Positions 4,587 to 44,840 of a stretch of DNA of 64,000 nucleotides are shown here, one piece after another; the stretch's first letter is position 1, and each line of letters opens with the position of its first letter. The notes beneath the pieces are model-generated. The model saw nothing but the letters and a program-made list of their open reading frames with translations. It did not search any database and was not told the origin of the DNA. Source of the DNA: Elusimicrobiota bacterium (GTDB lineage: Bacteria; Elusimicrobiota; Elusimicrobia; UBA1565; UBA9628); contig DAHZHT010000005.1 in the NCBI GenBank assembly GCA_027406905.1, forward strand, positions 50,080 through 114,079, given 5' to 3'. The position numbers and the translations under genes were made by a program.

Positions 4587-7058
4587 TCAGGCGCTCTCAA
4601 GCCGCCGCGTTCGAGATTCTTTCACGAAAATTTCGAGAGTATCGCCTTGCTGATAAGAAACGTTCCCGTCAATTTGAATCCCGCATTCGAGATTTTTTTC
4701 TACTTCTTTGACCTCATCTTTAAAGCGCTTGAGATTAACGACCTTCCCCTCAAAAACTTTCGCTCCGTTGCGAATAACACGGGCAAACGCCCCGCGGGAA
4801 ACCTTCCCTTCCCGAACGAAAGAGCCCGCGACAAAGGCCTTTCCCTTGAGCGGAAAAATCTCCCTGACTTCCGCTTTTCCGACAACCACTTCCACAATTT
4901 CAGGAGCCAAAAGCCCTTCCAGCGCCGCTTTGACATCGGCAATTAAGTCGTAAATAATTTTGTAGGAACGAATTTCCACTTCTTCCCGCGCCGCCAGTTC
5001 TCGGGCCCGCGATTCGGAAGAGCTGTTAAATAAGAAGATAATCGCGTTTGAAGCCGAGGCCAAAAGAACATCCGACTCGTTAGCGCTTCCAAGTCCGGCA
5101 TGAACGATGCGCACCTGGCATTCCTTGGTCGATAAGCTCTCCAGGGAATCGCGCAAAGCCTGAAGCGAACCCTGAACGTCGGCTTTAAGAATAATATTTA
5201 AATCTTTTGTCACGGACCCCAGTTGGGATTTAAGACTGACCAGACTGACATGGCGTTGGTGGGCCAAAACCTGTTCGCGGTTGAGTTTTTGCCTCTCTTC
5301 CGCGATTTCCCGGGCTTCTTTTTCGCTTTTAACGACGCTGAAAATATCTCCGGCCTGAGGCGTTTTCGATAAACCGAGAACCTCCACCGGAGTCGCCGGC
5401 TCCGCTTTTTCAAGCCTTTTTCCGTGCTCATCGACGAGCGCCTTAACCTTTCCATGGCACAGACCCACAACCAAGGGATCTCCAATGTTGAGCACCCCGG
5501 ACTGAACAAGCAAGGTCGCCACGCTTCCTCTTTGAGGATCCATCTTCGCTTCCAAAACAATGCCGGAAGCCGCGCGATCATAATTAGCTTTCAAATCCAA
5601 AAGTTCGGCTTGAAGAGAAAGCATTTCCAGAAGATGATCGATATTGGTTTTTTTCTTGGCCGAGACATCGACAAAAATCGTTTTTCCGCCCCACTCCTCC
5701 GGATTAAGGCCGTGAAGGGCGAGATCCTGGCGAATCTTTTGCGGGTTCGCCCCGGGAAGATCGATCTTATTGACCGCGACTACGATTGGAACTCCGGCGG
5801 CTTTGGCGTGATCGATGGCTTCAATGGTCTGCGGCATAATTCCATCGACCGCGCTGACGACCAAAACCACGATATCGGTGACCTTGGCCCCGCGAGATCT
5901 CATGGCGGTAAACGCTTCGTGACCCGGAGTATCCAAGAAAACCAAAACGCCTTTCGGGGTCGCGACCTTATACGCTCCAATATGCTGGGTAATGCCGCCC
6001 GCCTCTCCGGTCGCGACATTGCTCGAGCGAATCGCGTCTAAAAGGGATGTTTTACCGTGATCGACATGCCCCATGACCGTAATAATGGGAGGCCGCGATT
6101 TTAAATTCTCCGAAGAATCTTTTTGCCCGCGGGCGGTCTCGATTTCCTCTTCTTTGTACATCGCCGTCACTTTCAACTCGTAATTAAATTCCTGGGCGAT
6201 AATCATCGCGGCGTCAATTTCAAGGCGCTGATTAATGGTGGCGAAGATTCCAAGGCTCATCAATTTTTTGATCAATTCATTGGGAGTAGCTTCCATTTTC
6301 TCGGCCAACTCTCGAACCGTGATGATGCTGGGAACTTCCAGAACCCTTAAAGCGGGTTTAGCCTGAACCGAGGGAGAAGCGGGCGGAGCGGAAAGATTAA
6401 GAGCGGGTTTGGCCCCGGATTGAGGTCTAGGTTGAGGCTTTGTCGGAAGAGGATGAGTCTTAATGACTGGCCTTGGCTGAGCCGGAGGAACCGCCTTTGG
6501 GGGAGCCGCCGGAAGAGGCGCGGTTTTAGGCGGAGATGAGGCCGGAGTCGATTTTGGAGTCGGCGCGGGCGGGGCTGTCGCAGCGGAAGCCTGCGGCGCA
6601 TTTTTCTTAGGCTCTTCCGCAACAGGCTTAGATGCCGCGGGGACGGGATGAACCTGAGCCACCGGAGCCGGAACCGGAGATTGAGCGGGAGAAACTGGGG
6701 GTTTTTCCTTGGCTACCGGATTGGGAGTTCCCTTAAACCCCGTCGCCGGAGCCAAGCGCGCCACTGAAGGAACCTGCCTGGCGGGCCCGGATTTCCGCTT
6801 GAATAAATCAAAAGCCGAAACTAAATGAGAAGTTGGGGGAGCAATCGAACCTTCCTCGCTTAAAGCCCTTTCTTCCGCGCGAGCCTTGACAATAGAAGGC
6901 TTGGCGGAAGTTTTTTTCTTGGGAGAATCCGACTTGGCTTTCTTTGTCGACTCTCCTTTCTCCAAAGTGGATTTTTTGGCGTGCGGAGTTTTGGCGGATT
7001 TTTTCTCTTTTTCAGCTTTTTCTTTAGGTTCAGAAGTTTTTTTGGCTTTGGGAGGCAT
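4587..7058 (-). CDS. infB: translation initiation factor IF-2 with Pro/Ala/Lys-rich low-complexity N-terminal region
   Basis: G-domain motifs GHVDHGKTSLLD, DTPGHEAF and NKID. Domain order matches IF-2. N-terminal ~300 aa is low complexity. Confidence 0.95.
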   Translation of the reverse strand: MPPKAKKTSEPKEKAEKEKKSAKTPHAKKSTLEKGESTKKAKSDSPKKKTSAKPSIVKARAEERALSEEGSIAPPTSHLVSAFDLFKRKSGPARQVPSVARLAPATGFKGTPNPVAKEKPPVSPAQSPVPAPVAQVHPVPAASKPVAEEPKKNAPQASAATAPPAPTPKSTPASSPPKTAPLPAAPPKAVPPAQPRPVIKTHPLPTKPQPRPQSGAKPALNLSAPPASPSVQAKPALRVLEVPSIITVRELAEKMEATPNELIKKLMSLGIFATINQRLEIDAAMIIAQEFNYELKVTAMYKEEEIETARGQKDSSENLKSRPPIITVMGHVDHGKTSLLDAIRSSNVATGEAGGITQHIGAYKVATPKGVLVFLDTPGHEAFTAMRSRGAKVTDIVVLVVSAVDGIMPQTIEAIDHAKAAGVPIVVAVNKIDLPGANPQKIRQDLALHGLNPEEWGGKTIFVDVSAKKKTNIDHLLEMLSLQAELLDLKANYDRAASGIVLEAKMDPQRGSVATLLVQSGVLNIGDPLVVGLCHGKVKALVDEHGKRLEKAEPATPVEVLGLSKTPQAGDIFSVVKSEKEAREIAEERQKLNREQVLAHQRHVSLVSLKSQLGSVTKDLNIILKADVQGSLQALRDSLESLSTKECQVRIVHAGLGSANESDVLLASASNAIIFLFNSSSESRARELAAREEVEIRSYKIIYDLIADVKAALEGLLAPEIVEVVVGKAEVREIFPLKGKAFVAGSFVREGKVSRGAFARVIRNGAKVFEGKVVNLKRFKDEVKEVEKNLECGIQIDGNVSYQQGDTLEIFVKESRTRRLESA

Positions 7059-32222: not shown

Positions 32223-33725
32223 TTAGGACGCTTCCAAAATTTTTCTCTTGAGGATAACCCTCATTGATCTTCTGGTTTCATCAACGGCGATCTGGCCAAA
32301 TTTTTGTTTAAGCATTTCTAAAAAACCCGGGTCAGAATGGTATTTCATCCAGGCATAATCGCGGAAAGATAAAACCTCTTTTGCGCTCAGATGTTTTGTC
32401 GGCAATGGAAGGGTGTGATACGAATGTTGGGAAAAACCAGAGTAGCTCTTCGGCAGTTCCCAACCCGCTTTTTTAGCCATTCCATGCAGAGGGCTTCCCG
32501 GATAGGCCATCGCGGAATAAAAATTGGCCTCCTCCGTTCTCATTTCAAGCGCCAAATTCAACGTGGCTTGCATGCTTGACTGATCATCCTCCGGAAGGCC
32601 GAAAATATAGTTGGCGATGACGTTAATTCCGTGTTCTCTTATTTTTCTAACAACAGAGCGAATGTCAACGTCCTCAAATCGACCCTTGGTCACATCTTTG
32701 CGCACAAGAGAATTTGCGCTTTCAATTCCCAAGGCCAGCCAGTTGATTCCGGCCTTTTTCATCGTCTCAAGATAGCGATCCTTGACCGTATCCACTCTGG
32801 AATAACACCAAATATTAAAATTGTATCCTCGCTCAATAATAAGCTGGCACAGTTCTAAAAAATGATTCGGATTAAGAACAAAAAGCTCATCGGCAATTTT
32901 GATGTTCTTAATTCCTTGAGAGGCGAAATAATCGAAATCTCTGATAATATGTTTGGGATCCCAATAACGAAAAATAGCGCTCCCATCAGAAAATTCATTT
33001 TTTTGCCGATTGATGATATTGATCATGCAGAAAGAGCATTTCATTGGGCAGCCGAGACTTGTGTAAAGGGCCGCAAAAGGCTGCCTTTGAGATTGATTCG
33101 GATAAGAATGCCAGAGCGAAGTCCTATAATTTTTCATGGGAAGCAAATCCCAGGCGACTCCAGGCAAATCTTTTGGTAAATCTTCCTTGGCCACGATCGG
33201 AGAGGGAGAATTGAAAATGACTTTTCCGTTCTCTCTGTAACCGAGCCCAAGCACTTTGTCCAATCGATCGGAAAGATTTCCAGCTAAAAGGTTAGACAGG
33301 GTGTAAACTCCTTCGTTTTGACAAACAAAGTCTATGCTGGGATGCTTCCCCATCACTTCTTGAGGCAAGGCCGCGACATGTCCACCCACAAAAATAATTT
33401 TAATTTCCGGGAAATTCTTCTTAAGATGATCCGCCAGAGCCGTGGCTCCCTCCATATTCTGAGAACTCGCGGAAGGTTGCTGTCCATAAACCACGAAACA
33501 GGCAAGGCGGGGATTCAGATTTATAGTATGGGAAACGGCTTCATCATCCGTTAAGCGCAATGCTTCACAATCCAAGAGGTCAACGCGGTATCCTTTCATG
33601 CGACAGTGAGAGGCAAGCATTCCGGCCCAGATGGGCGGTTCAATCGCGGAGAAATCCTCGCTTAAATCCTGATAAACGCGATGTCCCGAATTGGAATGAA
33701 TAAAAAGAACATCAAGTTGATTCAT
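32223..33725 (-). CDS. cobalamin (B12)-binding radical SAM enzyme (class-B-like)
   Basis: N-terminal B12-binding Rossmann-like region. CxxxCxxC as CPMKCSFC. 500 aa. Confidence 0.75.
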   Translation of the reverse strand: MNQLDVLFIHSNSGHRVYQDLSEDFSAIEPPIWAGMLASHCRMKGYRVDLLDCEALRLTDDEAVSHTINLNPRLACFVVYGQQPSASSQNMEGATALADHLKKNFPEIKIIFVGGHVAALPQEVMGKHPSIDFVCQNEGVYTLSNLLAGNLSDRLDKVLGLGYRENGKVIFNSPSPIVAKEDLPKDLPGVAWDLLPMKNYRTSLWHSYPNQSQRQPFAALYTSLGCPMKCSFCMINIINRQKNEFSDGSAIFRYWDPKHIIRDFDYFASQGIKNIKIADELFVLNPNHFLELCQLIIERGYNFNIWCYSRVDTVKDRYLETMKKAGINWLALGIESANSLVRKDVTKGRFEDVDIRSVVRKIREHGINVIANYIFGLPEDDQSSMQATLNLALEMRTEEANFYSAMAYPGSPLHGMAKKAGWELPKSYSGFSQHSYHTLPLPTKHLSAKEVLSFRDYAWMKYHSDPGFLEMLKQKFGQIAVDETRRSMRVILKRKILEAS

Positions 33726-33830
33726 GAGCTTTCTGATTTTAGCATACCCTGAAGCCTGAAAATTGTGTTTATCCTTTAATGATATAATAGACTCTATGAA
33801 AGAAATATTTTCCTATCCGGCCTTGCCCTG

Positions 33831-34826
33831 ATGAAGGCTCCTTTTTATTCCTCTCTCTCTAGCGGCATGAGAGATTGGAAGCTCTACCGACTCATGCTTA
33901 AAATCAGGATGTCGGAGCAGAAAATTATTGATATTTATCCGAGCGATAAAATACAGAGCCCCATTCATCTTTCGATAGGACAAGAAGCCGTGGCTGCCGG
34001 TGTTTGTCTCGCCCTTAAATCCAGCGATCGAATTTATGGCACATACCGGGGACATGGAATTTACATTGCAAAGGGGGGAGATCTTGGGAAGATGTTCTCC
34101 GAGCTCTACGGAAAAGAAACCGGCTGTTCCAGAGGAAAAGGGGGATCCATGCATCTCTCCGCTCCGGAAGTCGGATTAGTCGGATGTTCAGCGATTGTTG
34201 GCAGTTTTATTCCCGTAGCCACGGGAGACGCTTTGGCCGCTCAAATGCGAAAAGATTCTCGCGTGGTCTGTTCGTTTTTTGGAGATGGAGCCGTTGATGA
34301 GGGCGTTTTTTTTGAAAGCGTTAATTTCGCCATTCTTAAAAATCTTCCCATTGTTTATGTTTGCGAGAACAATGGCTATGCGATCCACTCAAAAGTTTTG
34401 GATCGCCACAAACAGCCTTCCCTCGCCCGTCTCGTCTCTGGTCTCGGCTTGATTGGAAAACGCCATGATGGGAATGACGCTCCTGTCGTTTTTAAAACAA
34501 TGAGCCAAGCCATCACTCAAGCGCGTAAAGGCAAAGGCCCCGTTTTCCTGGAATATATGACCAATCGATGGCATGAACATGTCGGCCCCGGAACAGATTA
34601 TCAGGAGTCTTATCACTCCCCCAAAGACAAAGAAAATAATTCGCGCAATGACCCCATCAAAAAAATGGAAAAAATTTTGAAAAAACGGAAGGGATTTTCA
34701 CTCAGGGCGGATATTCTCAAGAAAGAAATTCAAAATGAGATAGACCAGGCCGTCAATTTCGCGGAGAAAAGCCCTTTCCCGTCCCTTCAGTCGCTTTATC
34801 ATGATCTTTATGCGGAGTCTCGATGA
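33831..34826 (+). CDS. thiamine-diphosphate-dependent dehydrogenase E1 alpha-like subunit
   Basis: ThDP-binding motif GDGAVDEGVFFESVNFA...CENNGYAI. Similar to pyruvate/acetoin dehydrogenase E1 alpha. Confidence 0.8.
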   Translation: MKAPFYSSLSSGMRDWKLYRLMLKIRMSEQKIIDIYPSDKIQSPIHLSIGQEAVAAGVCLALKSSDRIYGTYRGHGIYIAKGGDLGKMFSELYGKETGCSRGKGGSMHLSAPEVGLVGCSAIVGSFIPVATGDALAAQMRKDSRVVCSFFGDGAVDEGVFFESVNFAILKNLPIVYVCENNGYAIHSKVLDRHKQPSLARLVSGLGLIGKRHDGNDAPVVFKTMSQAITQARKGKGPVFLEYMTNRWHEHVGPGTDYQESYHSPKDKENNSRNDPIKKMEKILKKRKGFSLRADILKKEIQNEIDQAVNFAEKSPFPSLQSLYHDLYAESR

Positions 34827-35854
34827 AAAGGATGAATTACGGCCAAGCTATTCGTTCGGCGCTTCTCCATTCCATGGAACAAGATTCCTCTATTTTTATC
34901 ATGGGAATTGGAGTTGACGATCACAAGGCTGTTTTTGGAACAACGGCTGGATTGGTTGGGCGTTTTGGGAGAAATCGCGTTTTTGACACCCCCATTTCAG
35001 AATCTGGAATGACGGGCATCGCCATAGGAGCGGCCTTGGCGGGCATGAAGCCAATCCATATTCATATTCGCTCCGATTTCCTTTATCTTGCCATGGATCA
35101 GATCGCCAACATCGCCGCCAAGTGGTCTTCCATGTTTGGAGGCAACGCTTCCGTCCCGTTAGTCATTCGCTCCATCGTTGGACGAAGTTGGGGGCAAGGG
35201 GCGCAGCATTCTCAAAGCTTGCAATCGCTCTTTATGCATATTCCAGGCCTTAAGGTTCTCATGCCGACAACACCTTCCGAGGCGCAAGGCCTTCTTATCG
35301 CGGCGATCCAAGATCCTAACCCCGTACTAATTTTTGAGCATCGGCTTCTCTATGATATTATCGGAGATGTTCCCGATACGCCGACTGCGTTGCCGCTTGG
35401 CCGCGCGATAATTCGCCGAAAAGGAAGCGATATGACTCTTGTCGCCGGATCATATATGGCGGTAGAAAGCTTAAAGGCCGCAGAGTTTCTGTCCAAACAT
35501 GGCGTGGAGGCGGAAATTGTAGATCCAGTGTCTCTTGTCCCCCTGGATGAAAATAGAATTTTAGCATCCGTCGCAAAAACGGGGAGGGTCATCGTTATTG
35601 ATTCCAGCTGGACCACTTGCGGAATGAGCGCCGAGATCGCCGCCCTTATCGTTGAAAAAGGATTTCATTTCCTCAAAGCTCCGATACGCCGTCTTGGAAT
35701 GCAGCCCGTTGTCTGCCCCGTGAGCAAACCCCTGGAAGCAGCTTTCTATCCTAACGCAAAACTGATTGCCGCAGAGGCATTAACAATGCTGGGACGGGAT
35801 TTCCCAAAAACTCCCGCGCCTGAATTGCTCAACACGTTCAAAGGACCTTTTTAA
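34823..35854 (+). CDS. E1 beta-like (transketolase-type pyrimidine-binding and C-terminal domains) subunit
   Basis: Similar to 2-oxoacid dehydrogenase E1 beta. 4-nt overlap with the E1 alpha gene. Confidence 0.8.
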   Translation: MKRMNYGQAIRSALLHSMEQDSSIFIMGIGVDDHKAVFGTTAGLVGRFGRNRVFDTPISESGMTGIAIGAALAGMKPIHIHIRSDFLYLAMDQIANIAAKWSSMFGGNASVPLVIRSIVGRSWGQGAQHSQSLQSLFMHIPGLKVLMPTTPSEAQGLLIAAIQDPNPVLIFEHRLLYDIIGDVPDTPTALPLGRAIIRRKGSDMTLVAGSYMAVESLKAAEFLSKHGVEAEIVDPVSLVPLDENRILASVAKTGRVIVIDSSWTTCGMSAEIAALIVEKGFHFLKAPIRRLGMQPVVCPVSKPLEAAFYPNAKLIAAEALTMLGRDFPKTPAPELLNTFKGPF

Positions 35855-35855
35855 C

Positions 35856-37028
35856 ATGTTGCGCTATTACCTTGCTGAAGATACTATTAACCATTCCGAT
35901 GTTGACCGGCTTATCTCTTGGCTTAAAACCTATCCGCGCCTGACCAAGGGAGAAGTGACCCTTGATTTTGAGAACAAATGGGGACAATGGCTCGGGCGCG
36001 AATATTCCATCTTTTGCAATTCCGGCTCTTCCGCCAATCTTCTTATGTTTTACGCCCTTCTTCTCTCAAAGCGTTTAAAAAATAAAAAAATTATCGTCCC
36101 AAGCGTTGGCTGGGTCACTTCAGTGGCGCCAGCCATTCAATTCGGTTTTGAGCCCATTATGTGTGAGGCCGATCCTGAAACATTTGGCCTTGATCTTTCT
36201 CACCTGGAAATCCTGCTCAAACGTCATCGCCCCGGGGCGGTCATGCTTGTTCAGGTCTTGGGCGTTCCCCACAAAATGGACGAAATATTGAAACTTAAAA
36301 AGCGCTATGGGTTTCTTCTGCTTGAAGATGCCTGCGCCGCCGTTGGCGCTGAGTATCATGGAAACAAAGTGGGAACATTCGGAGATATGGCCAGTTTTTC
36401 CTACTATTTTGGGCACCAATTTTCCACGATTGAAGGGGGAATGGTTTCAACGAACGATAAGCACCTGGCAGACCTTTTGTTGATGTTGCGCAGTCACGGC
36501 TGGAGCAAGGATTTAGATGCGACAACTCATAAAAAATTAATTCGACAATATCGTGTTGATGATTTCCACAGTCCGTTTGTATTTTATGAGCCGGGGTTTA
36601 ATCTCCGATCAACCGATCTTAACGCCTATATTGGATTAGGCCAGATAGAAAAACTGTCCATGATCATAAAGGCTCGCCAAAAAAATCACTCTCAATATTT
36701 AAATCGCCTCGGTGATTATTTTTACACGCAAAAATGGGACAAAGAATCTCGCGTTTGCAGCATTTCATTTGGTCTTCTCGCAAAAAACAGAAGTGAGCGC
36801 GCGGCGGTTGTCTCGGCCCTTAACTCCCATGGAATTGAAACTAGAATTTTCTCCGCTGGAAACTTGGGCCTTCACCCTTTTTGGGTCAAGCGATACGGCA
36901 AGGCAAGTTTTCCTTTCGCCGATCGAATTCACCACACGGGATTTTTCCTTCCCAACAACCCCTCGCTTTCAGCCAAAAACATTGATTTTATATCGGATGT
37001 CGTTCTTGCCGCCGCTTTAAGAACATGA
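35856..37028 (+). CDS. DegT/ColD-family PLP enzyme, predicted nucleotide-sugar 3-dehydratase (catalytic Lys position replaced by His)
   Basis: Segment VGTFGDMASFSYYFGHQFSTIEGGMV...LRSHGWSKDLD resembles the ColD/E1 dehydratase subgroup of DegT proteins, where His replaces the Schiff-base Lys. Confidence 0.65.
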   Translation: MLRYYLAEDTINHSDVDRLISWLKTYPRLTKGEVTLDFENKWGQWLGREYSIFCNSGSSANLLMFYALLLSKRLKNKKIIVPSVGWVTSVAPAIQFGFEPIMCEADPETFGLDLSHLEILLKRHRPGAVMLVQVLGVPHKMDEILKLKKRYGFLLLEDACAAVGAEYHGNKVGTFGDMASFSYYFGHQFSTIEGGMVSTNDKHLADLLLMLRSHGWSKDLDATTHKKLIRQYRVDDFHSPFVFYEPGFNLRSTDLNAYIGLGQIEKLSMIIKARQKNHSQYLNRLGDYFYTQKWDKESRVCSISFGLLAKNRSERAAVVSALNSHGIETRIFSAGNLGLHPFWVKRYGKASFPFADRIHHTGFFLPNNPSLSAKNIDFISDVVLAAALRT

Positions 37029-37111
37029 AGAAAATTGCCCGCAAAACAAATCGCGTTCTCATTACTGGAATTGGGGACGGAATGACCAAGATGAGACGAA
37101 GGAAATCATAG
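37025..37111 (+). pseudogene. 28-codon stub of a Rossmann-fold (NAD(P)-binding) gene truncated by the IS remnant
   Basis: MKKIARKTNRVLITGIGDGMTKMRRRKS*. The ATG overlaps the stop of the ColD-like gene (ATGA). GxGxxG-like ITGIGDG is followed by immediate divergence and a stop. Confidence 0.5.
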
Positions 37112-37950
37112 GGCGAGTTCCGTTATGCCGATTTCAATCGTGAATCCGCTCAATTGGGGTTTTTTCACCGGGAAATAATTAGTTGTTGAGGGGCACTGGT
37201 GTCCGGGGAAAATCAGAACTCGAAGCATAGTTGAGGTTCCGTATTCCGCAACATGGATAATTTTCTCTCCGGTAGCCGCAGCAAATCGATCAGGCTGAGG
37301 CGATCCAAAAGGGTATTCTGAACGAGCTGTTGGAGCGGACAAGCGAGCGATGAAAGCGACATTGAAACTTGATGTAGGCCAGGAGCAAAAAGTACGTCAT
37401 GGACGCCCAAACCTGCGTGAGCACGGCGTTCTTGGAGGTGCCGAGGAACGTCTTTATCCGAAGGTGCGGCGTGATCCACTTGAAGAAAAGCTCCAGACAG
37501 AGGTCGATAGTGCCGGAATCGAAAGCGCACACGGGGTTTTTGAAGCGAAATTGATGATTGGGGGCGATGGCCTGGCAGCGCTCCAGAAGCTGGTAGAAGA
37601 GTTTCTCCATGATGCGGGAATCGCGTTTGGCGTTGGCGTCGGCCAAGGTCGATCGCTTCACGGCGGGCAATCCCCAGGTGGTAGAGCTTGGGCTCCTGGG
37701 TCTCCAGGGCGGTCTGGATGTCGCACAGGCTATTCTTGTTGGCGGCTTGAGCATACAGCAGCACCGTCAGTTGGTTCCAGGTCGAGAACTTTTTGACGTA
37801 ATGGTCTCCGCCGAAGTCGGAAACGGCTTGGTCGAACTGATGTCGGGGCAAAAGCGTCAACAACTGGTTCATGATTGTGTTAGAATACATTTGAAGAGTC
37901 CTCCGTCGGTATATTTAGCTTGCTCAGCACAAGTATTCTGCCAATGATGG
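37112..37950 (-). mobile_element. IS4-family insertion sequence remnant (3'-truncated)
   Basis: Two consecutive minus-strand reading frames give an IS4-family transposase N-terminal half (LLPRHQFDQAVSDFGGDHYVKKFSTWNQLTVLLYAQAANKNSLCDIQT; RSTLADANAKRDSRIMEKLFYQLLERC). No catalytic DDE C-terminal half. No inverted repeats identified. Confidence 0.65.
37213..37890 (-). pseudogene. frameshifted, truncated IS4-family transposase
   Basis: Covers ORFs 37213..37890 and 37290..37754, which are in different frames. Together they span about 250 aa, where a full-length transposase is more than 400 aa. Confidence 0.65.
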
Positions 37951-37998
37951 AGGATTCTTCGCTTTTAACCGGACACGAGTGATTGAGGGGCCAAATTT

Positions 37999-38937
37999 AT
38001 GAGAATGCGTATTTTTTTGACTGGCGGTAGCGGAATGGTTGGCAGAAATTTTCTTGAACATTCTGCCATAAGCGGATTCGATGTACTCGCCCCACACAGG
38101 AATGAGCTTAACTTGTTGGATTTTCAGGCAGTGACGGCATACGTTCGCGCACATAACCCTGATATTGTCATTCATGCCGCCGGTCGAGTGGGCGGTATTG
38201 AGGCCAATATGCGGGAGCCTGTTCGCTTTCTGATGGAAAACATGGATATGGGGCGCAATGTTGTTTTGGCGGCGCGTTCCATCGGAGTAAAGAAATTGTT
38301 GAATCTGGGGAGTTCTTGCATGTATCCTAGGAATGCCCCTAATCCACTGCATGAAGACATGGTGCTGAGCGGCGAACTAGAGCCAACCAATGAAGGATAT
38401 GCGCTTGCCAAGGTTGTTGTCGCGCGTCTATGTGAATATATTTCTCGCGAGAATCCGGAATATAAATACAAGACATTAATCCCGTGCAATCTCTATGGCC
38501 GCTATGACAACTTCGAACCATCGCGATCGCATTTGATGCCGGCAATTATTCATAAAATCCAAGAGGCTAAGTCCTCTGGATCAAGTGAAGTCACAATATG
38601 GGGTAATGGTATCGCGCGGCGAGAATTTATGTACGCTGGCGATTTGGCGGATTGCTTGATTGAGTCCGTTCGTCGTTTTGATAGTCTTCCCAATGTTATG
38701 AATGTGGGCGTTGGAGAAGATGCCAGCGTTGATGATTACTACAAAACCACTGCTGAAGTTATCGGTTATGGAGGCAAATTCACGCATGACTTAACCAAAC
38801 CGGTTGGAATGATGCGTAAGTTAGTATCGACGCAGAGGGCACAAGAGTGGGGATGGCGCGCTACAACTTCTTTGCGCGAAGGAATCAGGAAAGCATATGA
38901 CTTTTATGTGCAAGCATCAAAATTGAGAGTGGTATAA
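37999..38937 (+). CDS. fcl: GDP-L-fucose synthase family 3,5-epimerase/4-reductase (Fcl/ColC-like)
   Basis: Colinear with Fcl: MRIFLTGGSGMVGRN, LGSSCMYP, LEPTNEGYALAK, NLYGRYDNFEPSRSHLMPA, TIWGNGIARREF. Confidence 0.85.
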   Translation: MRMRIFLTGGSGMVGRNFLEHSAISGFDVLAPHRNELNLLDFQAVTAYVRAHNPDIVIHAAGRVGGIEANMREPVRFLMENMDMGRNVVLAARSIGVKKLLNLGSSCMYPRNAPNPLHEDMVLSGELEPTNEGYALAKVVVARLCEYISRENPEYKYKTLIPCNLYGRYDNFEPSRSHLMPAIIHKIQEAKSSGSSEVTIWGNGIARREFMYAGDLADCLIESVRRFDSLPNVMNVGVGEDASVDDYYKTTAEVIGYGGKFTHDLTKPVGMMRKLVSTQRAQEWGWRATTSLREGIRKAYDFYVQASKLRVV

Positions 38938-39046
38938 ATGGAAAACTATTACACTCTAGCCAGCACGACATGGAATGAGTCGGAACACTGGCGTATTCGA
39001 GTGGAAAAAAGATGGAAAGAGGCTTAGGGTTCTGCGGTAGAATAAA

Positions 39047-39991
39047 ATGAAAAAAGAAAAAATACTCATAACGGGGGGAGCGGGATACCTTGGATCGGTG
39101 ATGACTCGCCTTTTCCTTGAAACAGGCTATCACGTGCTTGTTCTGGATAATTTTATGTATGGACAATCCAGCCTTCTGGATTTTTGTGTTTTTGATTCTT
39201 TTGAAGTTGTGCGTGGAGACTGCCGCGATGAAGCTCTTATGAAAGGCCTCATCAAGGACGTGGATGCGGTCATTCCCTTGGCCGCATTGGTTGGCGCCCC
39301 TATCTGCAACCGCGATAAAATCGCCGCTGCGACCACCAATAGAGACGCGATCCAAATGCTCTGCCGCATAGCCGCCCCATCTCAAAAAATTCTTTTCCCC
39401 GTCACAAACAGCGGATATGGAATAGGAGAGAAAGGGAAATTTTGCACCGAGGAGAGTCCGCTGCGGCCAATTTCTTTTTACGGCCAAACAAAGGTTGAAG
39501 CGGAAAAAGCCATCTTGGATCGAGGCAATGGAATAACTTTTAGATTAGCGACAGCCTTTGGCGCTTCCCCCCGGATGCGAATGGATCTCCTGGTCAACGA
39601 TTTTGTCTACCGCGCGCTGGTGGACCGAGCTCTCATAGTGTTTGAGGGACACTTTAAGCGTAATTATATCCATGTCAGGGATATCGCGCGAGTTTTTCTT
39701 CATGGATTAAATAATTTCGAGACGATGAAAAATCAAACCTACAACGTGGGTCTTGAAGATGCCAACCTTTCAAAAATTGAGCTCTGCGCTCTTATTCAAA
39801 AAACTCTTCCGCAATTTGTCTATCACCAAGCGGAGATAGGAGAAGATCCCGATAAGCGCGATTACATCGTTTCTAACGCAAAAATACTCGCCACGGGATT
39901 TAAGCCCCAATGGAGCATCGAACGCGGAATCAAGGAACTCATTAAATGTTACACCGCTCTTGGAAAGGTCAATCTCTATGGAAATATTTAG
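39047..39991 (+). CDS. NAD-dependent epimerase/dehydratase (extended SDR)
   Basis: ILITGGAGYLGS Rossmann motif and YGQTKVEAEK (YxxxK). Lacks the T(D/E)xVYG motif of 4,6-dehydratases. Confidence 0.7.
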   Translation: MKKEKILITGGAGYLGSVMTRLFLETGYHVLVLDNFMYGQSSLLDFCVFDSFEVVRGDCRDEALMKGLIKDVDAVIPLAALVGAPICNRDKIAAATTNRDAIQMLCRIAAPSQKILFPVTNSGYGIGEKGKFCTEESPLRPISFYGQTKVEAEKAILDRGNGITFRLATAFGASPRMRMDLLVNDFVYRALVDRALIVFEGHFKRNYIHVRDIARVFLHGLNNFETMKNQTYNVGLEDANLSKIELCALIQKTLPQFVYHQAEIGEDPDKRDYIVSNAKILATGFKPQWSIERGIKELIKCYTALGKVNLYGNI

Positions 39992-39997
39992 AACCCG

Positions 39998-40993
39998 ATG
40001 ATCATCACTCGAACTCCCTTTCGCATGTCTTTTTTTGGCGGCGGAACGGATTATCCCGATTGGTATCGTGAGCATGGCGGAGCGGTTGTCGCCGCGACTA
40101 TCGACAAATATTGTTACATCACCTGCCGCTATTTGCCACCGTTTTTTAATTACAAGAGCCGCATTCTCTATTCAAAGATAGAATTAGTCGAAAATAATTC
40201 AAAAATTGAACATCCCGCCGTCCGCGCCGTTTTATCCGAATTGGGCATCGATTCAGGATTAGAAATTCATCATGATGGAGATCTTCCCGCCCGCACGGGT
40301 CTTGGTTCAAGTTCGGCTTTTCTTGTAGGCCTTCTCCATGCTATTTCCGCTTTAAAAAATCGAATGTCAACAAAAATGGAACTGGCAAAGACGGCGATAC
40401 ACGTTGAACAAACCGTGCTGAAAGAGAATGTCGGCTGCCAAGATCAGGTCATTACCGCCTTTGGCGGATTACAACGCATCGATTTTCAAAAAAGGGGCGA
40501 TATTCATATCAACCCCATTGTTATCAGCGAAGAGCGGCTGAAATTCCTGGAAAGTTCGGTCCTTCTCTATTTTACCGGCTTTTCCCGTATTGCCTCGGAA
40601 ATTGTTAAAGAGCAACTACAAAACATTCCTCAAAAAGCCCACGAGCTTTTACGCATTCGCGAGATGGTCGATGAATCAATTGAAATCCTCTCTGGAAATG
40701 GCGATTTAAACGAGTTTGGCAAACTCCTGGATGAAAGCTGGGAGCTTAAAAGAAGGCTCAGCTCCAAGGTTTCCTCCCCTGCTATTGATGAAATCTATAA
40801 AGCCGCGAAATCAGCCGGGGCTTTGGGCGGAAAAATCATGGGCGCCGGCGGCGGGGGATTTATGATGTTGTTTGCCCCCCCCGAAGCTCATCCGCGCATT
40901 CATGAAAAGCTAAAACATCTTTTAAGAATCCCCTTTCATTTTGAAAACGAGGGCAGTCACATTATTTACTATCACCCCAATGGAGGTCGCTAA
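39998..40993 (+). CDS. GHMP-family sugar kinase (heptose-7-phosphate kinase HddA / fucokinase-like)
   Basis: N-terminal TPFRMSFFGGGTDYPDWY and GHMP motif PARTGLGSSSAFLVGLL. Confidence 0.7.
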   Translation: MIITRTPFRMSFFGGGTDYPDWYREHGGAVVAATIDKYCYITCRYLPPFFNYKSRILYSKIELVENNSKIEHPAVRAVLSELGIDSGLEIHHDGDLPARTGLGSSSAFLVGLLHAISALKNRMSTKMELAKTAIHVEQTVLKENVGCQDQVITAFGGLQRIDFQKRGDIHINPIVISEERLKFLESSVLLYFTGFSRIASEIVKEQLQNIPQKAHELLRIREMVDESIEILSGNGDLNEFGKLLDESWELKRRLSSKVSSPAIDEIYKAAKSAGALGGKIMGAGGGGFMMLFAPPEAHPRIHEKLKHLLRIPFHFENEGSHIIYYHPNGGR

Positions 40994-41693
40994 CGCCATC
41001 GAAGTAGATGCCATAATTCTTTGCGGAGGGCAAGGCCGCCGCCTCGTGAAAGTTCTCCCTGACTTGCCTAAAGCTCTTGCCCCTATTGGAAACAAATCTT
41101 TCCTCGATATTCTACTCGACTACGCTGTCCAAGAAGGACTGCGGCGTTTTATTTTTTGCCTTGGACACCGCGCAAGCGCCATAGAAGAGAGATTAAGCGC
41201 GCGGCAGGATTGCGATATCGTTTTTTCAAAAGAGACCGTTCCGCTTGGGACCGCTGGCGCTCTCAAATTATGCGAACCATTGAGAAGAAGTCGAACATCC
41301 CTAGTGATGAATGGCGACTCTCTATGCAATTTCAACATCAAGGAGTTTCTTAAAGCCCATGTAGAAAATAACGCTTCGGCAAGCGTCGCGGCGGTCATGG
41401 CGCCCGATAGAGATGACGGCGGATTTATCGAGTTCGCAAAGGATTATCAGATCACGCGATTTAATGAAAAATATGGAAGCGCGAAATATATTAACGCTGG
41501 AGTTTACGCGCTCAACTCCGAGCTTTGGGGGAAAATTCCCCCAGAGCGACCCTGTTCCATCGAGAAAGACGTCTTCCCGCAACTCGTGGGACACGGCCTT
41601 TTCGCCTGGCCCACTCACGCGCCACTTTTTGACATTGGAACTCCGGAACGCCTTGAGGCTTTTCGGCTCTTATATGCTAGTAGAGATCCTTGA
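40980..41693 (+). CDS. sugar-1-phosphate nucleotidyltransferase (HddC / GDP-sugar pyrophosphorylase-like)
   Basis: AIILCGGQGRRL...LPKALAPIGNKSFLD. About 238 aa. Overlaps the kinase gene end. Confidence 0.7.
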   Translation: MEVANAIEVDAIILCGGQGRRLVKVLPDLPKALAPIGNKSFLDILLDYAVQEGLRRFIFCLGHRASAIEERLSARQDCDIVFSKETVPLGTAGALKLCEPLRRSRTSLVMNGDSLCNFNIKEFLKAHVENNASASVAAVMAPDRDDGGFIEFAKDYQITRFNEKYGSAKYINAGVYALNSELWGKIPPERPCSIEKDVFPQLVGHGLFAWPTHAPLFDIGTPERLEAFRLLYASRDP

Positions 41694-42876
41694 TTTTATC
41701 GCAGACATGCTCCGCGAATGGAATCGCACAGGTAAATCCGGGCGAAACGGCGTTGAGCACGTGCAGGGAGCGATTGTCTCCTTCGACGACAAAATCCATC
41801 TCGAGCTTCATTGTCTCGATATTCAACAGCTGGGCGCGCATGCCTGGCAGCCCCCATTTCCTGAAATTTTCAGGCCGCACTCCTTTCAATAAACGCCCCG
41901 CCAAAGCGGCCATTCTCTGCGCGGAATACTTTTGGAATTCCTCCAGGGCCAACCTCTTAAAATCAAAATCTGAATAAAAGAGAAGTCCTATATTTCTTGC
42001 CGTGATTTCAAGCATTTCTTTAAGAGAAAAGCCCTCCAGGCCCGCGTACTGCTCTCTCCAAAACGCCGGGATGGCCGTTGGACCAATATGGACGTTTCCA
42101 TTCGCCGCGAGGGTAAAGTGAACTCCGAGAAAGGGATTGCGGATATCGGGCACGGGATAGACATTCGTCCGAACGGAACCGACAGGCTCTGTCGAATTAA
42201 GATAAAGCCCTTTAAAAGGCACGATGCGGTGACGCTGTGAAAACCCAAAATCGCGAGCGATTTTATCAGCATAGAGGCCCGCCGCGTTGACCACATATCC
42301 CGCTTTGATAACTCCGGCGCTCGTGCGTACGCCATTAGGACCCACGGACAAATAGGCTTCATTTTCTCGAATATCGACCCCCTCGCTGATTGCGTCTTGG
42401 CGCAGAGATTCCATGACTTGAAACGGGTCGACCGTGGATGTCGTAGGGGAGAAAAGGGCTTTTTCATAAGTCAAGACTCGAGGTTCTATCTCTTGAGCTT
42501 CTTTCGAACTCAACATCCAAAGCGGAACCCCATTGGCTTTTCCTCGACGCATTAGTTCCTCAAGGGCCAGAATATCCTCGGGACCCTGGGCGACGACCAG
42601 TTTCCCGCAGCGGTTGAGTGGAATATTTTTATCCTCGCAATAACGAGTCAAGGCTTTGTTCCCCGATCTAGCCAATTGAGCTTTTAAGCTGTCGGGAAAA
42701 TAATAAAATCCGGCATGGATGACGCCGCTATTGCGCCCGCTGGCATGGAGGCCGCATCTCTTCTCTTTTTCCAGAACGGCGACGGAACAGTCCGGATGGA
42801 GAACTTTAAGTTCTCGGGATATTTGTATCCCGATGATTCCACCGCCGATAACGACAAAATCCCGCGATTCTATCAC
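41677..42876 (-). CDS. FAD-dependent oxidoreductase, L-2-hydroxyglutarate oxidase (LhgO)-like
   Basis: DFVVIGGGIIGIQISRELKVLHPDCSVAVLEKE...GLHASGRNSGVIHAGFYY, consistent with the LhgO/DAO family. Confidence 0.7.
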   Translation of the reverse strand: MIESRDFVVIGGGIIGIQISRELKVLHPDCSVAVLEKEKRCGLHASGRNSGVIHAGFYYFPDSLKAQLARSGNKALTRYCEDKNIPLNRCGKLVVAQGPEDILALEELMRRGKANGVPLWMLSSKEAQEIEPRVLTYEKALFSPTTSTVDPFQVMESLRQDAISEGVDIRENEAYLSVGPNGVRTSAGVIKAGYVVNAAGLYADKIARDFGFSQRHRIVPFKGLYLNSTEPVGSVRTNVYPVPDIRNPFLGVHFTLAANGNVHIGPTAIPAFWREQYAGLEGFSLKEMLEITARNIGLLFYSDFDFKRLALEEFQKYSAQRMAALAGRLLKGVRPENFRKWGLPGMRAQLLNIETMKLEMDFVVEGDNRSLHVLNAVSPGFTCAIPFAEHVCDKIKDLY

Positions 42877-42882
42877 GATCTC

Positions 42883-44127
42883 TCAGGAATTTTGCTGGAG
42901 TTCGGAAGATGGAAATATCCGCGAAAGAGCGGCTCCGGAGAAAATAATCAATAGGGCTAAGGCTGGAAGCTGGTAGCGATTGTCCCAATACCCGACGAAA
43001 ATGTGAAGACTGTAGTAGCAAAATCCCGCAAAGGCAAGAGTAGAAGCTATTGTCCAATTTGTACGCCGTAAATACATTTCCCAAAAGGCAAGAATCAAGG
43101 TCGCTAGTTCAAAAACCCAAAGGACAGCCCTAATCACAATGGGCCCCCAACGTCCTTCTTGGCGATAAACGGAAATGGGTTGATCAATCCCGAACATCGC
43201 CGAATGGCTGGTCAACCAAAAATGAATCAGGCGAGACGGGAGTTTAAAGATCAATCGCGGCCAATTGGCTTTATAATTATTCAAGGCCATCCGATAAAAT
43301 TCGGCATCCGTCTCGATCTCGCTTCTCCCCACGGCCACCTGTTTTTGGACTGCCCCAACGTCGAGAGGGCGGGAAAGCTGCGAACCGCACCAAAGCGCGG
43401 GCCCTCCCCCTGTCGCCACCGGAATCCAAACTCCCATGACCTGTTTGTTTCTCAAAGACCAAGGAAGAAGCGTTAAGTAGGCGCACAGGAGAACTCCCGC
43501 AAGATGCCGCAACAGGCGCGGTTTTTTATGATGGAAAAGAAGAATAAGGAATGCGGCTCCTGGAGGAAATAAAATAAGGCTGGGCCGACAGAGAATCGCC
43601 AGTCCAAGCACAAAGCCCGCGAAAGCAAACAACCACTCCAGATTTTTCTTTAAATTTGACTCAAAAGCGTAAAGTAAAAGACAAAGGGCGGACGACCATG
43701 TCATGATAAACAGAGTCTCCGTCATAATTTCCGCGGTATAAGCGATAAAAACAGGATGAAGAGCGTAAAAGGCCGCCCCAAAAATCGCTCCCCTGCGTTC
43801 ATTGAGAGCATAAAGACCAAAAAGATAGATAAGCCCGATCGTTATTGTGTCTAAGAATGCTTGCGCTGCGCGCGCGTAAAACCACGGCCTATTGGAAAGC
43901 ATGACAAAAATAGAAAGGAATGCCGGATATAAAGGAGGGCGTATCGCCGTAGGCTGATTTCTAATCATGGAAAATTCGCCATGGAGGGCTATATTTTGGG
44001 CAATGCCGGCATACTCTACGCTATCTCCCAACAAAGGCGCCGATCTTTTTACCACCACCATGCTGATTCGAAGGATAAATCCCATGACCAAAACAATAAA
44101 CAAAGGATTTCTTAAAAAATTTTTCAT
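42883..44127 (-). CDS. GT-C fold glycosyltransferase (family 39 ArnT/PMT-like), second copy
   Basis: Polytopic membrane protein. Start set at MKNFLRNPLFIVLVMGF, whose ATG overlaps the GT2 stop (ATGA). Confidence 0.6.
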   Translation of the reverse strand: MKNFLRNPLFIVLVMGFILRISMVVVKRSAPLLGDSVEYAGIAQNIALHGEFSMIRNQPTAIRPPLYPAFLSIFVMLSNRPWFYARAAQAFLDTITIGLIYLFGLYALNERRGAIFGAAFYALHPVFIAYTAEIMTETLFIMTWSSALCLLLYAFESNLKKNLEWLFAFAGFVLGLAILCRPSLILFPPGAAFLILLFHHKKPRLLRHLAGVLLCAYLTLLPWSLRNKQVMGVWIPVATGGGPALWCGSQLSRPLDVGAVQKQVAVGRSEIETDAEFYRMALNNYKANWPRLIFKLPSRLIHFWLTSHSAMFGIDQPISVYRQEGRWGPIVIRAVLWVFELATLILAFWEMYLRRTNWTIASTLAFAGFCYYSLHIFVGYWDNRYQLPALALLIIFSGAALSRIFPSSELQQNS

Positions 44128-44840
44128 TTCGATCCCTTCCGCCGCCAATAGAAAATTTCTCGAAGGATCTGTGCCATATAGGCTAAACCCCAACGCACAA
44201 TTTGGAGCTTCCGGTCTCCGCCTAGGCGCTTTGGCTCATCTCCAGGAATTTCCGTCACTCTCAGACGTGTTTTTGCGCAGCGGACGGAAAGGATAGGTTC
44301 CCAACTGATGCGTGTACAAAAAAATTTCTCCGGCGTGTAGGTCGAGTCCTTATCTAAATCAAGCAACCCAATAAGGTCTTTCTTATACGCGCGATACATG
44401 ACCATGGCGTCAGTGTATTGTCCGCCAAAAAGGAAGTTGATTGTATAGGTAAAAAGCCAATTGCCAAAAGCGGTCATGAAATCATCATCTTCGCTTTTGG
44501 CGCCGGCCAGGTAGCGAGACACAATCACCATGTCATAACCTTCTTTGATTTTCTCAATCAATGGGGGAATTAATTCTGGGAGAGAATTCCCATCAGGGCT
44601 GAAGGTGATAATGACATCACCTTTGATTAAGCTCATTGCTTCCAAATAGCCATGGCGCAACCCGCGCTCTTTCTGAACGATAACATCAAATCCCTGAGAA
44701 TGACAATACCCCACCGTGCCATCATTAGAGCCGCCATCAAGGACTAAAATTTGGTCAACCCAACGGCGATCAATAAGCGGCATAATTTGACGCATCCCAA
44801 TTTCTTCATTTAAGACTGGAACCAAAAGGGTGGTCTTCAT
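44124..44840 (-). CDS. GT2 polyprenyl-phosphate sugar synthase (ArnC/DPM1-like)
   Basis: VPVLNEE...ILVLDGGSNDGT...DxD-type motifs. 238 aa. Confidence 0.75.
   Translation of the reverse strand: MKTTLLVPVLNEEIGMRQIMPLIDRRWVDQILVLDGGSNDGTVGYCHSQGFDVIVQKERGLRHGYLEAMSLIKGDVIITFSPDGNSLPELIPPLIEKIKEGYDMVIVSRYLAGAKSEDDDFMTAFGNWLFTYTINFLFGGQYTDAMVMYRAYKKDLIGLLDLDKDSTYTPEKFFCTRISWEPILSVRCAKTRLRVTEIPGDEPKRLGGDRKLQIVRWGLAYMAQILREIFYWRRKGSK

Follow-up and report, generated by a model that had tools for sequence, protein, structure and literature searches.

The closest described systems to the locus analysed here are the capsular GDP-heptose pathways of Campylobacter jejuni, for which heptose activation, C4 oxidation, C3 dehydration and C4 reduction have been reconstituted (PMC10680097). 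The locus, a cassette of sugar-tailoring genes at positions 32223–44840 of a 64-kb stretch of Elusimicrobiota DNA (contig DAHZHT010000005.1; hereafter the window), appears to share with them both the enzyme families (HddA/HddC, Cj1427, the HS:5 C3-dehydratase and Cj1428-type C4-reductases) and the order of chemistry: GDP activation, 2-oxoglutarate-driven C4 oxidation, 3-deoxygenation dependent on pyridoxamine phosphate (PMP) and Fcl-type reduction. The natural place of the C. jejuni 3-dehydratase is after a 4,6-dehydratase, and its pairing with Cj1427 is an in vitro construct, whereas here that pairing is the native gene arrangement. Unlike the window locus, the C. jejuni clusters have no reported L-2-hydroxyglutarate oxidase (LhgO), thiamine diphosphate (ThDP)-dependent E1 alpha/beta pair, cobalamin (B12) radical S-adenosylmethionine (SAM) enzyme or export pair of GT2 and GT-C glycosyltransferases.

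Other known systems share parts of the cassette. The GDP-L-colitose pathway (Gmd, ColD, ColC) resembles it in having a ColD-type dehydratase with a catalytic His and a ColC-type reductase, but the locus lacks Gmd and its 4-keto group would come from a C4-dehydrogenase acting on a heptose, so that C6 keeps its substituents. With the ThDP-dependent C-branching systems (YerE/ErwE; AviB1/B2, Pau11/12, KbDH) it shares an E1 pair beside the maker of a 3-deoxy-4-keto nucleotide sugar, the acceptor type of YerE and of the C4-branching alpha-KADH2 enzymes. YerE-type enzymes add C2 branches to the 3,6-dideoxy-4-keto sugars of lipopolysaccharides, while E1 alpha/beta-type (alpha-KADH2) enzymes place C2 units from pyruvate onto C3 or C4 keto-sugars in antibiotic pathways, as established by knockout, feeding and in vitro work (PMC12247030; PMC4753412). 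The branched cell-envelope sugars treated in two reviews use the single-chain YerE type and the known alpha-KADH2 cases are actinomycete antibiotics; in contrast, the present system would act on a GDP-heptose in uncultured Gram-negative-type phyla. Periplasmic glycosylation systems that use polyprenyl phosphate (ArnC/ArnT, GtrB/GtrC, Ppm1/PMT) likewise couple a GT2 to a PMT_2/ArnT-like GT-C, although here the GT2 is short (238 aa), a GDP-heptose derivative would serve as donor and loci differ in their GT-C partner. Cobalamin radical-SAM enzymes such as HpnJ, BchE and TokK share the N-terminal B12-binding domain and CxxxCxxC core of the window enzyme, which reaches no subfamily cut-off.

Judged by homology, the first half of the predicted pathway is a case of Campylobacter-type GDP-heptose tailoring, which is already known. 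What would be new is the native coupling of C4-dehydrogenase and 3-dehydratase, a predicted recycling LhgO, an E1 pair and a B12 radical-SAM enzyme in a GDP-heptose pathway, with roles that we infer, and a predicted polyprenyl-phosphate export arm. A preliminary description of the locus knew of no described pathway with this combination, which holds for the E1 and radical-SAM part, the first half being known from C. jejuni (PMC10680097). We found no paper describing the whole combination, the alpha-KADH2 survey of Krug et al. 2024, which may list such clusters, being outside the coverage of our search. That in silico survey reportedly covers approximately 120 alpha-KADH2 clusters. On balance, we favour the view that the locus makes and exports a tailored GDP-heptose by the full scheme set out below.

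A cassette conserved across phyla

The locus contains 12 open reading frames (ORFs) of 225–500 aa each, together with remnants of a further gene and of an insertion sequence (IS). SDR denotes a short-chain dehydrogenase/reductase:

32223–33725, minus strand: cobalamin-binding radical-SAM protein, 500 aa (Pfam B12-binding and Radical_SAM)
33831–34826, plus strand: ThDP-dependent E1 alpha subunit, alpha-KADH2 type (Pfam E1_dh, E 1e-57)
34823–35854, plus strand: E1 beta subunit (Pfam Transket_pyr and Transketolase_C)
35856–37028, plus strand: predicted ColD-type PMP-dependent GDP-4-keto-sugar 3-dehydratase (DegT), 390 aa (match to PDB 2GMS)
37025–37111, plus strand: truncated 5' remnant of SDR3, Rmd/Gmd-like (N-terminus matches SDR3 of relatives)
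37194–37981, minus strand: internally deleted IS4-type element, 788 bp (19-nt inverted repeats and transposase stub)
37213–37890, minus strand: transposase stub ORF within the IS4-type element (Pfam DUF4372 only)
37999–38937, plus strand: predicted ColC/Fcl-type GDP-4-keto-sugar 5-epimerase/4-reductase (match to 7LL6, homologues in ColC context)
39047–39991, plus strand: SDR2, extended SDR, predicted Cj1427-like GDP-heptose C4-dehydrogenase (match to PDB 6VO6)
39998–40993, plus strand: HddA-like D-glycero-D-manno-heptose 7-phosphate kinase, GHMP family (HddA best NCBIfam match)
40941–41693, plus strand: HddC-like sugar-1-phosphate guanylyltransferase, probable start ATG 40980 (Pfam NTP_transferase)
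41677–42876, minus strand: LhgO-type L-2-hydroxyglutarate oxidase, DAO-family flavoprotein (passes NCBIfam equivalog cut-off)
42883–44127 (ORF to 44193), minus strand: polytopic GT-C glycosyltransferase, PMT_2/ArnT-like (Pfam PMT_2, E 5e-16)
44124–44840, minus strand: small GT2 of the polyprenyl-phosphate sugar synthase type, 238 aa (Pfam Glycos_transf_2)

The genes are tightly packed. Those for E1 alpha and E1 beta overlap as ATGA, 1 nt separates E1 beta from the DegT gene and 6 nt separate SDR2 from the kinase gene, whose ORF overlaps that of the transferase. On the other strand, the GT2 stop overlaps the GT-C ATG at 44127 as ATGA, given a GT-C start there, and 6 nt lie between the GT-C and flavoprotein genes. 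The radical-SAM gene diverges from E1 alpha across 105 nt. A promoter and terminator scan of the locus gave no decisive operon boundaries, and an Rfam search of the 64-kb window found no riboswitch. The flanks hold the housekeeping genes BioY, CoaD, RsmI, TsaC and GlyA. Each family named in the preliminary description was backed by Pfam and NCBIfam, and the GT2/GT-C coupling that it proposed is borne out by the sequence. Its twelve genes correspond to the 12 ORFs, of which 37213–37890 is the IS stub and not a pathway gene; SDR2, which it passed over and left unnamed, is pivotal as the Cj1427-type homologue.

Related loci were collected in two surveys. For the first, an E1 alpha alignment was scanned against one genome per species, which yielded 80 loci, all from metagenome-assembled genomes (MAGs); the 12 window proteins were mapped onto the loci and all locus ORFs were clustered. 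Counts for this survey refer to 82 non-redundant E1-seeded loci, a good number of which are truncated by a contig end. The second, independent survey was seeded with an SDR2 alignment in metagenome contigs and comprises a strict subset, 21 loci flanked by 5 kb or more on each side, and a looser set, whose loci span 8 kb or more. The E1 alpha family itself is large, with 7,966 of 8,000 scored candidates at E ≤ 1e-20; a search for the exact E1 alpha sequence of the window retrieved no contig, and a cluster look-up yielded no names.

Across the 82 E1-seeded loci, E1 beta was found in 75, the GHMP kinase in 48, and the ColD-like DegT, SDR2 (50–74% identity) and the Fcl-like SDR in 47 each. The B12 radical-SAM protein (40–75% identity) followed in 32, the NTP transferase in 28, the small GT2 (50–66% identity) in 21 and SDR3, a third SDR, in 17. 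The loci come from Elusimicrobiota, Omnitrophota, Nitrospirota, Binatia, Acidobacteriota, Planctomycetota, Thermodesulfobacteriota, Chloroflexota, Spirochaetales, Alpha- and Gammaproteobacteria, candidate-phyla-radiation groups and Bathyarchaeota. Early gene maps of four relatives gave the order E1 alpha–E1 beta–DegT–SDR–SDR–GHMP kinase–NTP transferase, with a 500-aa B12 radical-SAM gene last in locus L005, where, as in the plasmid described next, all cassette genes are co-directional.

All eleven functions stand in one co-directional cluster on pDMC1, the 58.7-kb plasmid of the cultured bacterium Solidesulfovibrio magneticus RS-1. The order there is VTT/DedA protein, GT2 (52% identical to the window protein), second GT2, radical-SAM protein (41%), NUDIX protein, kinase (54%), E1 alpha (41%), E1 beta (49%), ‘GDP-L-fucose synthase’ (36%), DegT, SDR2 (58%), transferase (40%), PMT-type GT-C, an annotated lhgO (40%) and a SIS-domain protein. 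Partial cassettes are carried by Azospirillum plasmids, and in A. argentinense Az39 a split transketolase takes the place of the E1 pair. On Az39 plasmid p5 (L090 13136–22021) a kinase–SDR2–B12 radical-SAM operon lies opposite this split transketolase, which is accompanied by a ‘cobalamin-dependent protein’ and a class I methyltransferase.

The gene association is far beyond chance, recurring across phyla in two independently seeded sets and on plasmids of cultured bacteria. The preliminary description had allowed that the E1 pair and the radical-SAM enzyme might fall into ordinary central metabolism with no conserved linkage; because the linkage of both to the sugar genes is genuine and recurs in dozens of loci across many phyla, its grouping of the genes stands. 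That the genes are neighbours by chance, with the E1 pair serving central 2-oxo-acid metabolism and the radical-SAM protein unrelated to the sugar genes, is extremely improbable: the E1 subunits do resemble those of pyruvate dehydrogenase (PDH) and the radical-SAM gene is on the opposite strand, but the conserved linkage, plasmids included, already contradicts it, no E2 or E3 gene lies nearby (ORFs scanned over 28.2–49.6 kb) and the genes are co-directional in L005 and RS-1.

A NUDIX hydrolase gene recurs beside the radical-SAM or kinase genes (L003 18755–19234; L005 7161–7742; L088 10406–10885) and may encode a GDP-sugar hydrolase; there is none in the window locus. The IF-2 gene of the window (4587–7058) has relatives 93–98% identical in public assemblies, and every named top match of its product comes from Elusimicrobiota; the best E1 alpha match is 74% and the best ColC-type match 78% identical. 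The cassette may be strain-variable or recently acquired.

Predicted heptose activation, C4 oxidation and 3-dehydration

The proposed steps up to 3-dehydration draw on homology to characterised enzymes and on conserved context. In this scheme, heptose 7-phosphate from a GmhA encoded elsewhere would be phosphorylated at C1 by the HddA-like kinase. SDR2 would oxidise C4, its bound NADH being reoxidised with 2-oxoglutarate to give L-2-hydroxyglutarate, which the LhgO-type flavoprotein would convert back to 2-oxoglutarate. The ColD-type PMP enzyme would then remove the 3-hydroxyl, leaving GDP-3-deoxy-4-keto-heptose.

The top NCBIfam match of the kinase is HddA (139.7 bits, cut-off 600), and its four best PDB matches (3K85, 4USM/4USK, 4N3O) comprise three heptose phosphate kinases and one Burkholderia ‘putative sugar kinase’, presumably WcbL. 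For the transferase, the top NCBIfam match is mannose-1-P guanylyltransferase and the second HddC (91.9 bits, cut-off 300); its GGxGxR motif lies after the internal Met. At least 12 related loci have gmhA and gmhB homologues within the cassette, adjoining the kinase gene (in L083 they stand between transferase and kinase), and the SIS-domain gene belongs to the RS-1 cluster. From the homology of SDR2, the matches of the kinase and of the transferase, and the gmhA/gmhB genes of relatives, the predicted substrate is a heptose. The earlier assignment to a GDP-linked deoxysugar pathway is therefore kept as regards GDP-type nucleotide-sugar tailoring, with the hexose replaced by a heptose, and the kinase and nucleotidyltransferase would, from their families, form the activation pair that had been predicted.

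SDR2 matched PDB entries 6VO6/6VO8 with 385 bits (E 1.7e-114; 55% identity over 310 aa). Entry 6VO6 is presumably C. jejuni Cj1427, and the deposited molecule name fits. Cj1427 is a GDP-heptose C4-dehydrogenase with a ping-pong mechanism, in which tightly bound NADH is reoxidised by 2-oxoglutarate to yield L-2-hydroxyglutarate (PMC10680097). As a Cj1427-type homologue, SDR2 points to a heptose substrate, to a recycling role for LhgO and to a first half of the pathway that has already been described. The flavoprotein, previously called simply an FAD oxidase, is correctly placed in its family by that name, which missed its specific identity: it scores 307.1 bits against the NCBIfam equivalog NF008726 (L-2-hydroxyglutarate oxidase), above the cut-off of 299. 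LhgO-type neighbours scanned in four E1-seeded loci (L005, L010, L019 and L070) score 352–400 bits and all pass. In the SDR2-seeded survey, 6 of the 21 loci of the strict subset have a DAO/LhgO-type ORF no more than 10 kb from SDR2, often directly beside it (L097, L111, L131), and this ORF tracks SDR2 regardless of the presence of E1 or radical-SAM genes. The presence of LhgO in the cassette would be explained by the 2-oxoglutarate/L-2-hydroxyglutarate cycle of an SDR2-type dehydrogenase, and from this context the flavoprotein probably returns the by-product L-2-hydroxyglutarate to 2-oxoglutarate.

The DegT protein finds its best PDB match in ColD (2GMS, E 1e-54; 31% identity to E. coli ColD), both being 390 aa long. 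Its His aligns with ColD His188, the catalytic residue that takes the place of the lysine that binds pyridoxal phosphate (PLP). The earlier ColD-type call agrees with this. Of the 57 sequences aligned, 55 carry His in the His188 column, namely 54 of the 56 locus DegTs and the ColD reference itself; both exceptions, with Lys, are archaeal. The His is also conserved in 29 of 36 DegTs from SDR2-seeded loci. By these residues the DegT protein is a predicted ColD-type 3-dehydratase. Given the Cj1427 product in vitro, the Campylobacter HS:5 C3-dehydratase forms GDP-3-deoxy-4-keto-heptose (m/z 616.08; PMC10680097). In two Bathyarchaeota loci, L044 and L084, the E1 pair lies beside DegTs that keep the PLP lysine and would therefore be true aminotransferases, which suggests that the archaeal cassettes are a different, amino-sugar variant.

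The E1 pair, the radical-SAM enzyme and the nature of the product

For the later steps, we infer roles as follows. The E1 alpha/beta enzyme, which has no E2 or E3, would serve as a carboligase, decarboxylating pyruvate and adding the C2 unit to the C4 ketone to give a 4-C-acetyl tertiary alcohol. The ColC/Fcl-type SDR would epimerise C5 and/or reduce the remaining ketone, and the B12 radical-SAM enzyme would modify an unactivated carbon, most simply by C-methylation. The small GT2 would move the finished sugar from GDP to polyprenyl phosphate and, after flipping, the GT-C would attach it to an envelope acceptor. As a tentative identification that could well prove wrong, the product would be an undescribed 3-deoxy-heptose with a ThDP-installed two-carbon branch at C4 (nine carbons), C-methylated by the radical-SAM enzyme or, less likely, closed into a caryose-like carbocycle, delivered on polyprenyl phosphate to the envelope of Elusimicrobiota and of numerous further phyla, mostly uncultured, and served by a dedicated LhgO.

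Against the PDH E1 alpha model, E1 alpha reaches 282 bits (cut-off 394), and its family alignment retains the GDG...ENN ThDP motif; the best solved structure for E1 beta is Geobacillus PDH E1 beta (221 bits). Solved structures are uninformative on the roles of both the E1 pair and the radical-SAM protein. A scan of the ORFs from 28.2 to 49.6 kb revealed no E2- or E3-type domain. E1 beta invariably comes after E1 alpha, and the pair is contiguous with the ColD-like gene in 47 E1-seeded loci. In SDR2-seeded loci it always occurs with DegT (4/4 well-flanked loci, 9/9 in the looser set) and accompanies the radical-SAM gene in 4/4 and 7/9, respectively. Drawing mainly on this gene context, the most likely role of the pair is C2 branching at the C4 ketone. 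Some E1-bearing loci have no reductase in reach (L173, and L142 and L144 despite flanks of 10 kb each way; in L018 there is none within 11 kb), which is easier to explain if the E1 pair uses up the C4 ketone. The idea that the reductase is dispensable wherever the E1 pair is present gave no signal (6/9 vs 24/33 loci, Fisher p = 0.70). A route by way of heptose C7 methylation to erwiniose was also rejected, the published route being from CDP-3,6-dideoxy-4-keto-hexose and 4-hydroxy-2-oxopentanoate by a YerE-type enzyme. A literature search linking heptose with ThDP or E1 found nothing relevant.

The radical-SAM protein has the class B layout, a B12-binding domain and a CxxxCxxC core (CPMKCSFC), but reaches no characterised methylase subfamily cut-off. 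Its best NCBIfam matches are HpnJ (148.6 bits, cut-off 577.6) and BchE (121.7 bits), both far under their cut-offs, and it scores 37 bits against the methylase TokK. HpnJ and BchE form five-membered carbocycles and do not methylate. Orthologues occur in RS-1 pDMC1 and on the Azospirillum plasmids, and in SDR2-seeded loci the gene is found only with DegT (10/10), DegT being present in 3 of 11 loci where the radical-SAM gene is absent. By sequence it is a separate clade tied to heptose clusters, and it may be a C-methylase. A SPASM-type radical-SAM gene occurs in L001 (2806–4002) and L002 (19407–20465), cassettes with no B12 radical-SAM orthologue inside; L001 has a truncated 549-aa B12 radical-SAM ORF at the locus edge only, and in L002 a class I methyltransferase lies directly 3' of the transferase gene.

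The reductase slot has a history of its own. In the closest relatives, L007 and L008, SDR3 comes directly after the dehydratase gene; among solved structures, its top matches are GDP-6-deoxy-4-hexulose reductase (Rmd, 200 bits) and the GDP-heptose 4,6-dehydratase of Campylobacter (182 bits). In the window a 29-codon frame begins at ATG 37025, in ATGA overlap with the ColD-like stop, and its translation, MKKIARKTNRVLITGIGDGMTKMRRRKS*, matches the SDR3 N-termini of relatives only as far as RVLITGIG. The remainder of SDR3 is absent from the 64-kb window, and the locus has no Gmd, only this Rmd/Gmd-like stub. Downstream lies the IS element, with inverted repeats of 19 nt (84% complementary) at 37194–37212 and 37963–37981, in which only DUF4372, the N-terminal domain of IS4-type transposases, is recognisable. 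The ColC-type gene begins 18 nt past the element. A sigma-70-like site at 37857–37886 (plus strand) within the IS element is directed into the ColC-type gene.

The protein encoded there scores 262 bits against the GDP-L-fucose synthase 7LL6, with Ser-Cys and YxxxK motifs retained, and 310 bits against the NCBIfam Fcl model, under the cut-off of 500. Its nearest relatives are 73–78% identical, many of the named ones being beta- or gammaproteobacterial ‘GDP-L-fucose synthase’. Two of these relatives (77%) sit in the order Gmd–homologue–DegT, and that DegT is 62% identical to E. coli ColD, a context which argues that the window gene is a ColC-type epimerase/reductase replacing SDR3. This refines and upholds the Fcl/ColC-type call of the preliminary description, which the 77% identity to proteins of Gmd–ColC–ColD trios favours. 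The IS event would have removed the ancestral Rmd/Gmd-like SDR, with a colitose-type ColC gene now filling the slot; elsewhere the same slot holds a human-type Fcl (L005) or the Rmd/Gmd-like SDR3 (L007/L008). The resulting composition (E1 alpha/beta, ColD, Fcl-type, SDR2, kinase, transferase, radical-SAM, GT2) is the commonest among relatives, so the pathway is probably intact. In locus L091 (750–10115; JGI Ga0100388_10000704), a YerE-type yersiniose-like set (NTP transferase, 4,6-dehydratase-like SDR, 437-aa DegT with the His motif, 546-aa thiamine pyrophosphate enzyme, SDR) stands directly upstream of a canonical Gmd–ColC–ColD colitose trio; the 312-aa protein of L091 is also listed by NCBI under a name from a Hydrogenophilales MAG.

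Several points weigh against a C4-branched product and the scheme that leads to it. The three interchangeable subfamilies of GDP-4-keto-sugar reductase in one slot argue for reduction of the ring C4 ketone, in competition with the E1 enzyme at C4, and in this strain the IS event may have left the pathway impaired. Of 17 well-flanked SDR2-seeded loci, 6 have the dehydratase and radical-SAM genes but no E1 pair, as do 10 of 33 in the looser set, so that the radical-SAM reaction would be independent of the C2 branch. Kinase, transferase, Fcl-like, E1 and radical-SAM proteins all fall under their NCBIfam equivalog cut-offs. Neither gmhA nor gmhB is present in the 64-kb window, and these genes must therefore be encoded elsewhere in the genome. 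The equation of 6VO6 with Cj1427 is an assumption, in keeping with the deposited molecule name. The closest E1 alpha in a cultured actinomycete (47%, on a Streptomyces plasmid) belongs to a polyketide-type, non-sugar cluster; an assignment of the E1 role by similarity was rejected on this account, since sequence alone then assigns no function to the pair. Lastly, documented sugar branching by alpha-KADH2 enzymes is all on actinomycete antibiotic sugars, with no GDP-heptoses among them (PMC12247030).

Among the alternatives, a possible though rather doubtful one is that the product is unbranched GDP-3-deoxy-L-heptose, a heptose analogue of colitose with a ColC-type finish, and that the radical-SAM and E1 enzymes act on the C6–C7 side chain. 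The former would create or methylate a side-chain carbon, and the latter would extend or branch a side-chain carbonyl. The colitose-trio relatives of the window reductase and the exchange of C4-ketoreductase subfamilies in its slot are what this would predict. The E1 pair occurs only where the radical-SAM gene is present, which is itself also found without E1, a pattern that fits an E1 reaction after the radical-SAM step, and Campylobacter enzymes form GDP-3-deoxy-heptoses likewise in vitro (PMC10680097). However, no side-chain-oxidising enzyme is known in the set, translational coupling ties the E1 genes to the 3-dehydratase, the product of which bears the only known ketone, and the E1-bearing loci L142, L144, L173 and L018 have no reductase in reach.

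An unlikely reading, compatible with the others, is that the cassette is decaying or being rewired in this genome, SDR3 having been lost through the IS and the ColC gene being a recent graft. The SDR3 stub and the IS remnant are indeed present, the nearest relatives of the ColC-type gene (73–78%) include beta- and gammaproteobacterial entries, and the relatives of IF-2 are 93–98% identical, yet the best E1 alpha match is 74%. Set against this, the eleven remaining ORFs are all intact and tightly packed, and the gene composition that results is the commonest among relatives.

It is improbable that the E1 and radical-SAM enzymes together build a caryose-type carbocyclic nonose, by addition of an acetyl group at C4 and radical closure of C7 onto the acetyl carbonyl, even though both best family matches of the radical-SAM protein form five-membered carbocycles. 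The carbon count fits caryose (4,8-cyclo-3,9-dideoxy-nonose), the biosynthesis of which is reported as unknown (PMC9092360), and a search for literature on caryose genetics found nothing relevant. But the HpnJ score of 148.6 is set against a cut-off of 577.6, the reductase would be superfluous, and the radical-SAM gene is found in many clusters with no E1 pair; the 6 of 17 SDR2-seeded loci of this kind are why we keep the caryose scheme as a minor rival only.

A predicted export arm and implications

We return to the tailored GDP-heptose and its predicted delivery. The best NCBIfam matches of the GT2 are AglJ, dolichyl-phosphate hexose transferase and ArnC, with equivalog cut-offs not reached; the Pfam matches of both the GT2 and the PMT_2 protein exceed gathering scores. 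In a simple hydropathy scan, the 238-aa GT2 has no hydrophobic segment and the GT-C has approximately six strongly hydrophobic ones. The small GT2 is the most conserved accessory gene, adjoining the cassette in 21 loci and in RS-1, which adds a DedA/VTT-domain protein to the export set. GT-C homologues accompany the cassette in L016, L021 and L025, and a PMT-type protein does so in the RS-1 cluster; other loci have different large polytopic proteins in this position, as expected if acceptors differ between organisms. Proteins of 570–675 aa with no Pfam match and approximately 4–10 hydrophobic segments (simple scan) flank many cassettes (L002 8124–10004 and 17386–19350; L001 4183–6210; L088 20054–21769), and could be unrecognised glycosyltransferases or polymerases for the product.

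These comparisons would place Campylobacter heptose chemistry in nature beyond that genus, with the C4-dehydrogenase and 3-dehydratase as a widespread native pathway, and the recurrent LhgO offers a testable fate for the L-2-hydroxyglutarate released by a ping-pong dehydrogenase. If the proposed E1 role is true, it would be the first sugar branching of the E1 alpha/beta type outside actinomycete antibiotics and the first on a GDP-heptose. Substrates for the E1 and radical-SAM steps are already enzymatically accessible, and S. magneticus RS-1 is a cultured host of the whole set. What the locus makes is probably a new envelope sugar, borne by phyla that are poorly known, and the locus may bear on the origin of branched or carbocyclic higher sugars.

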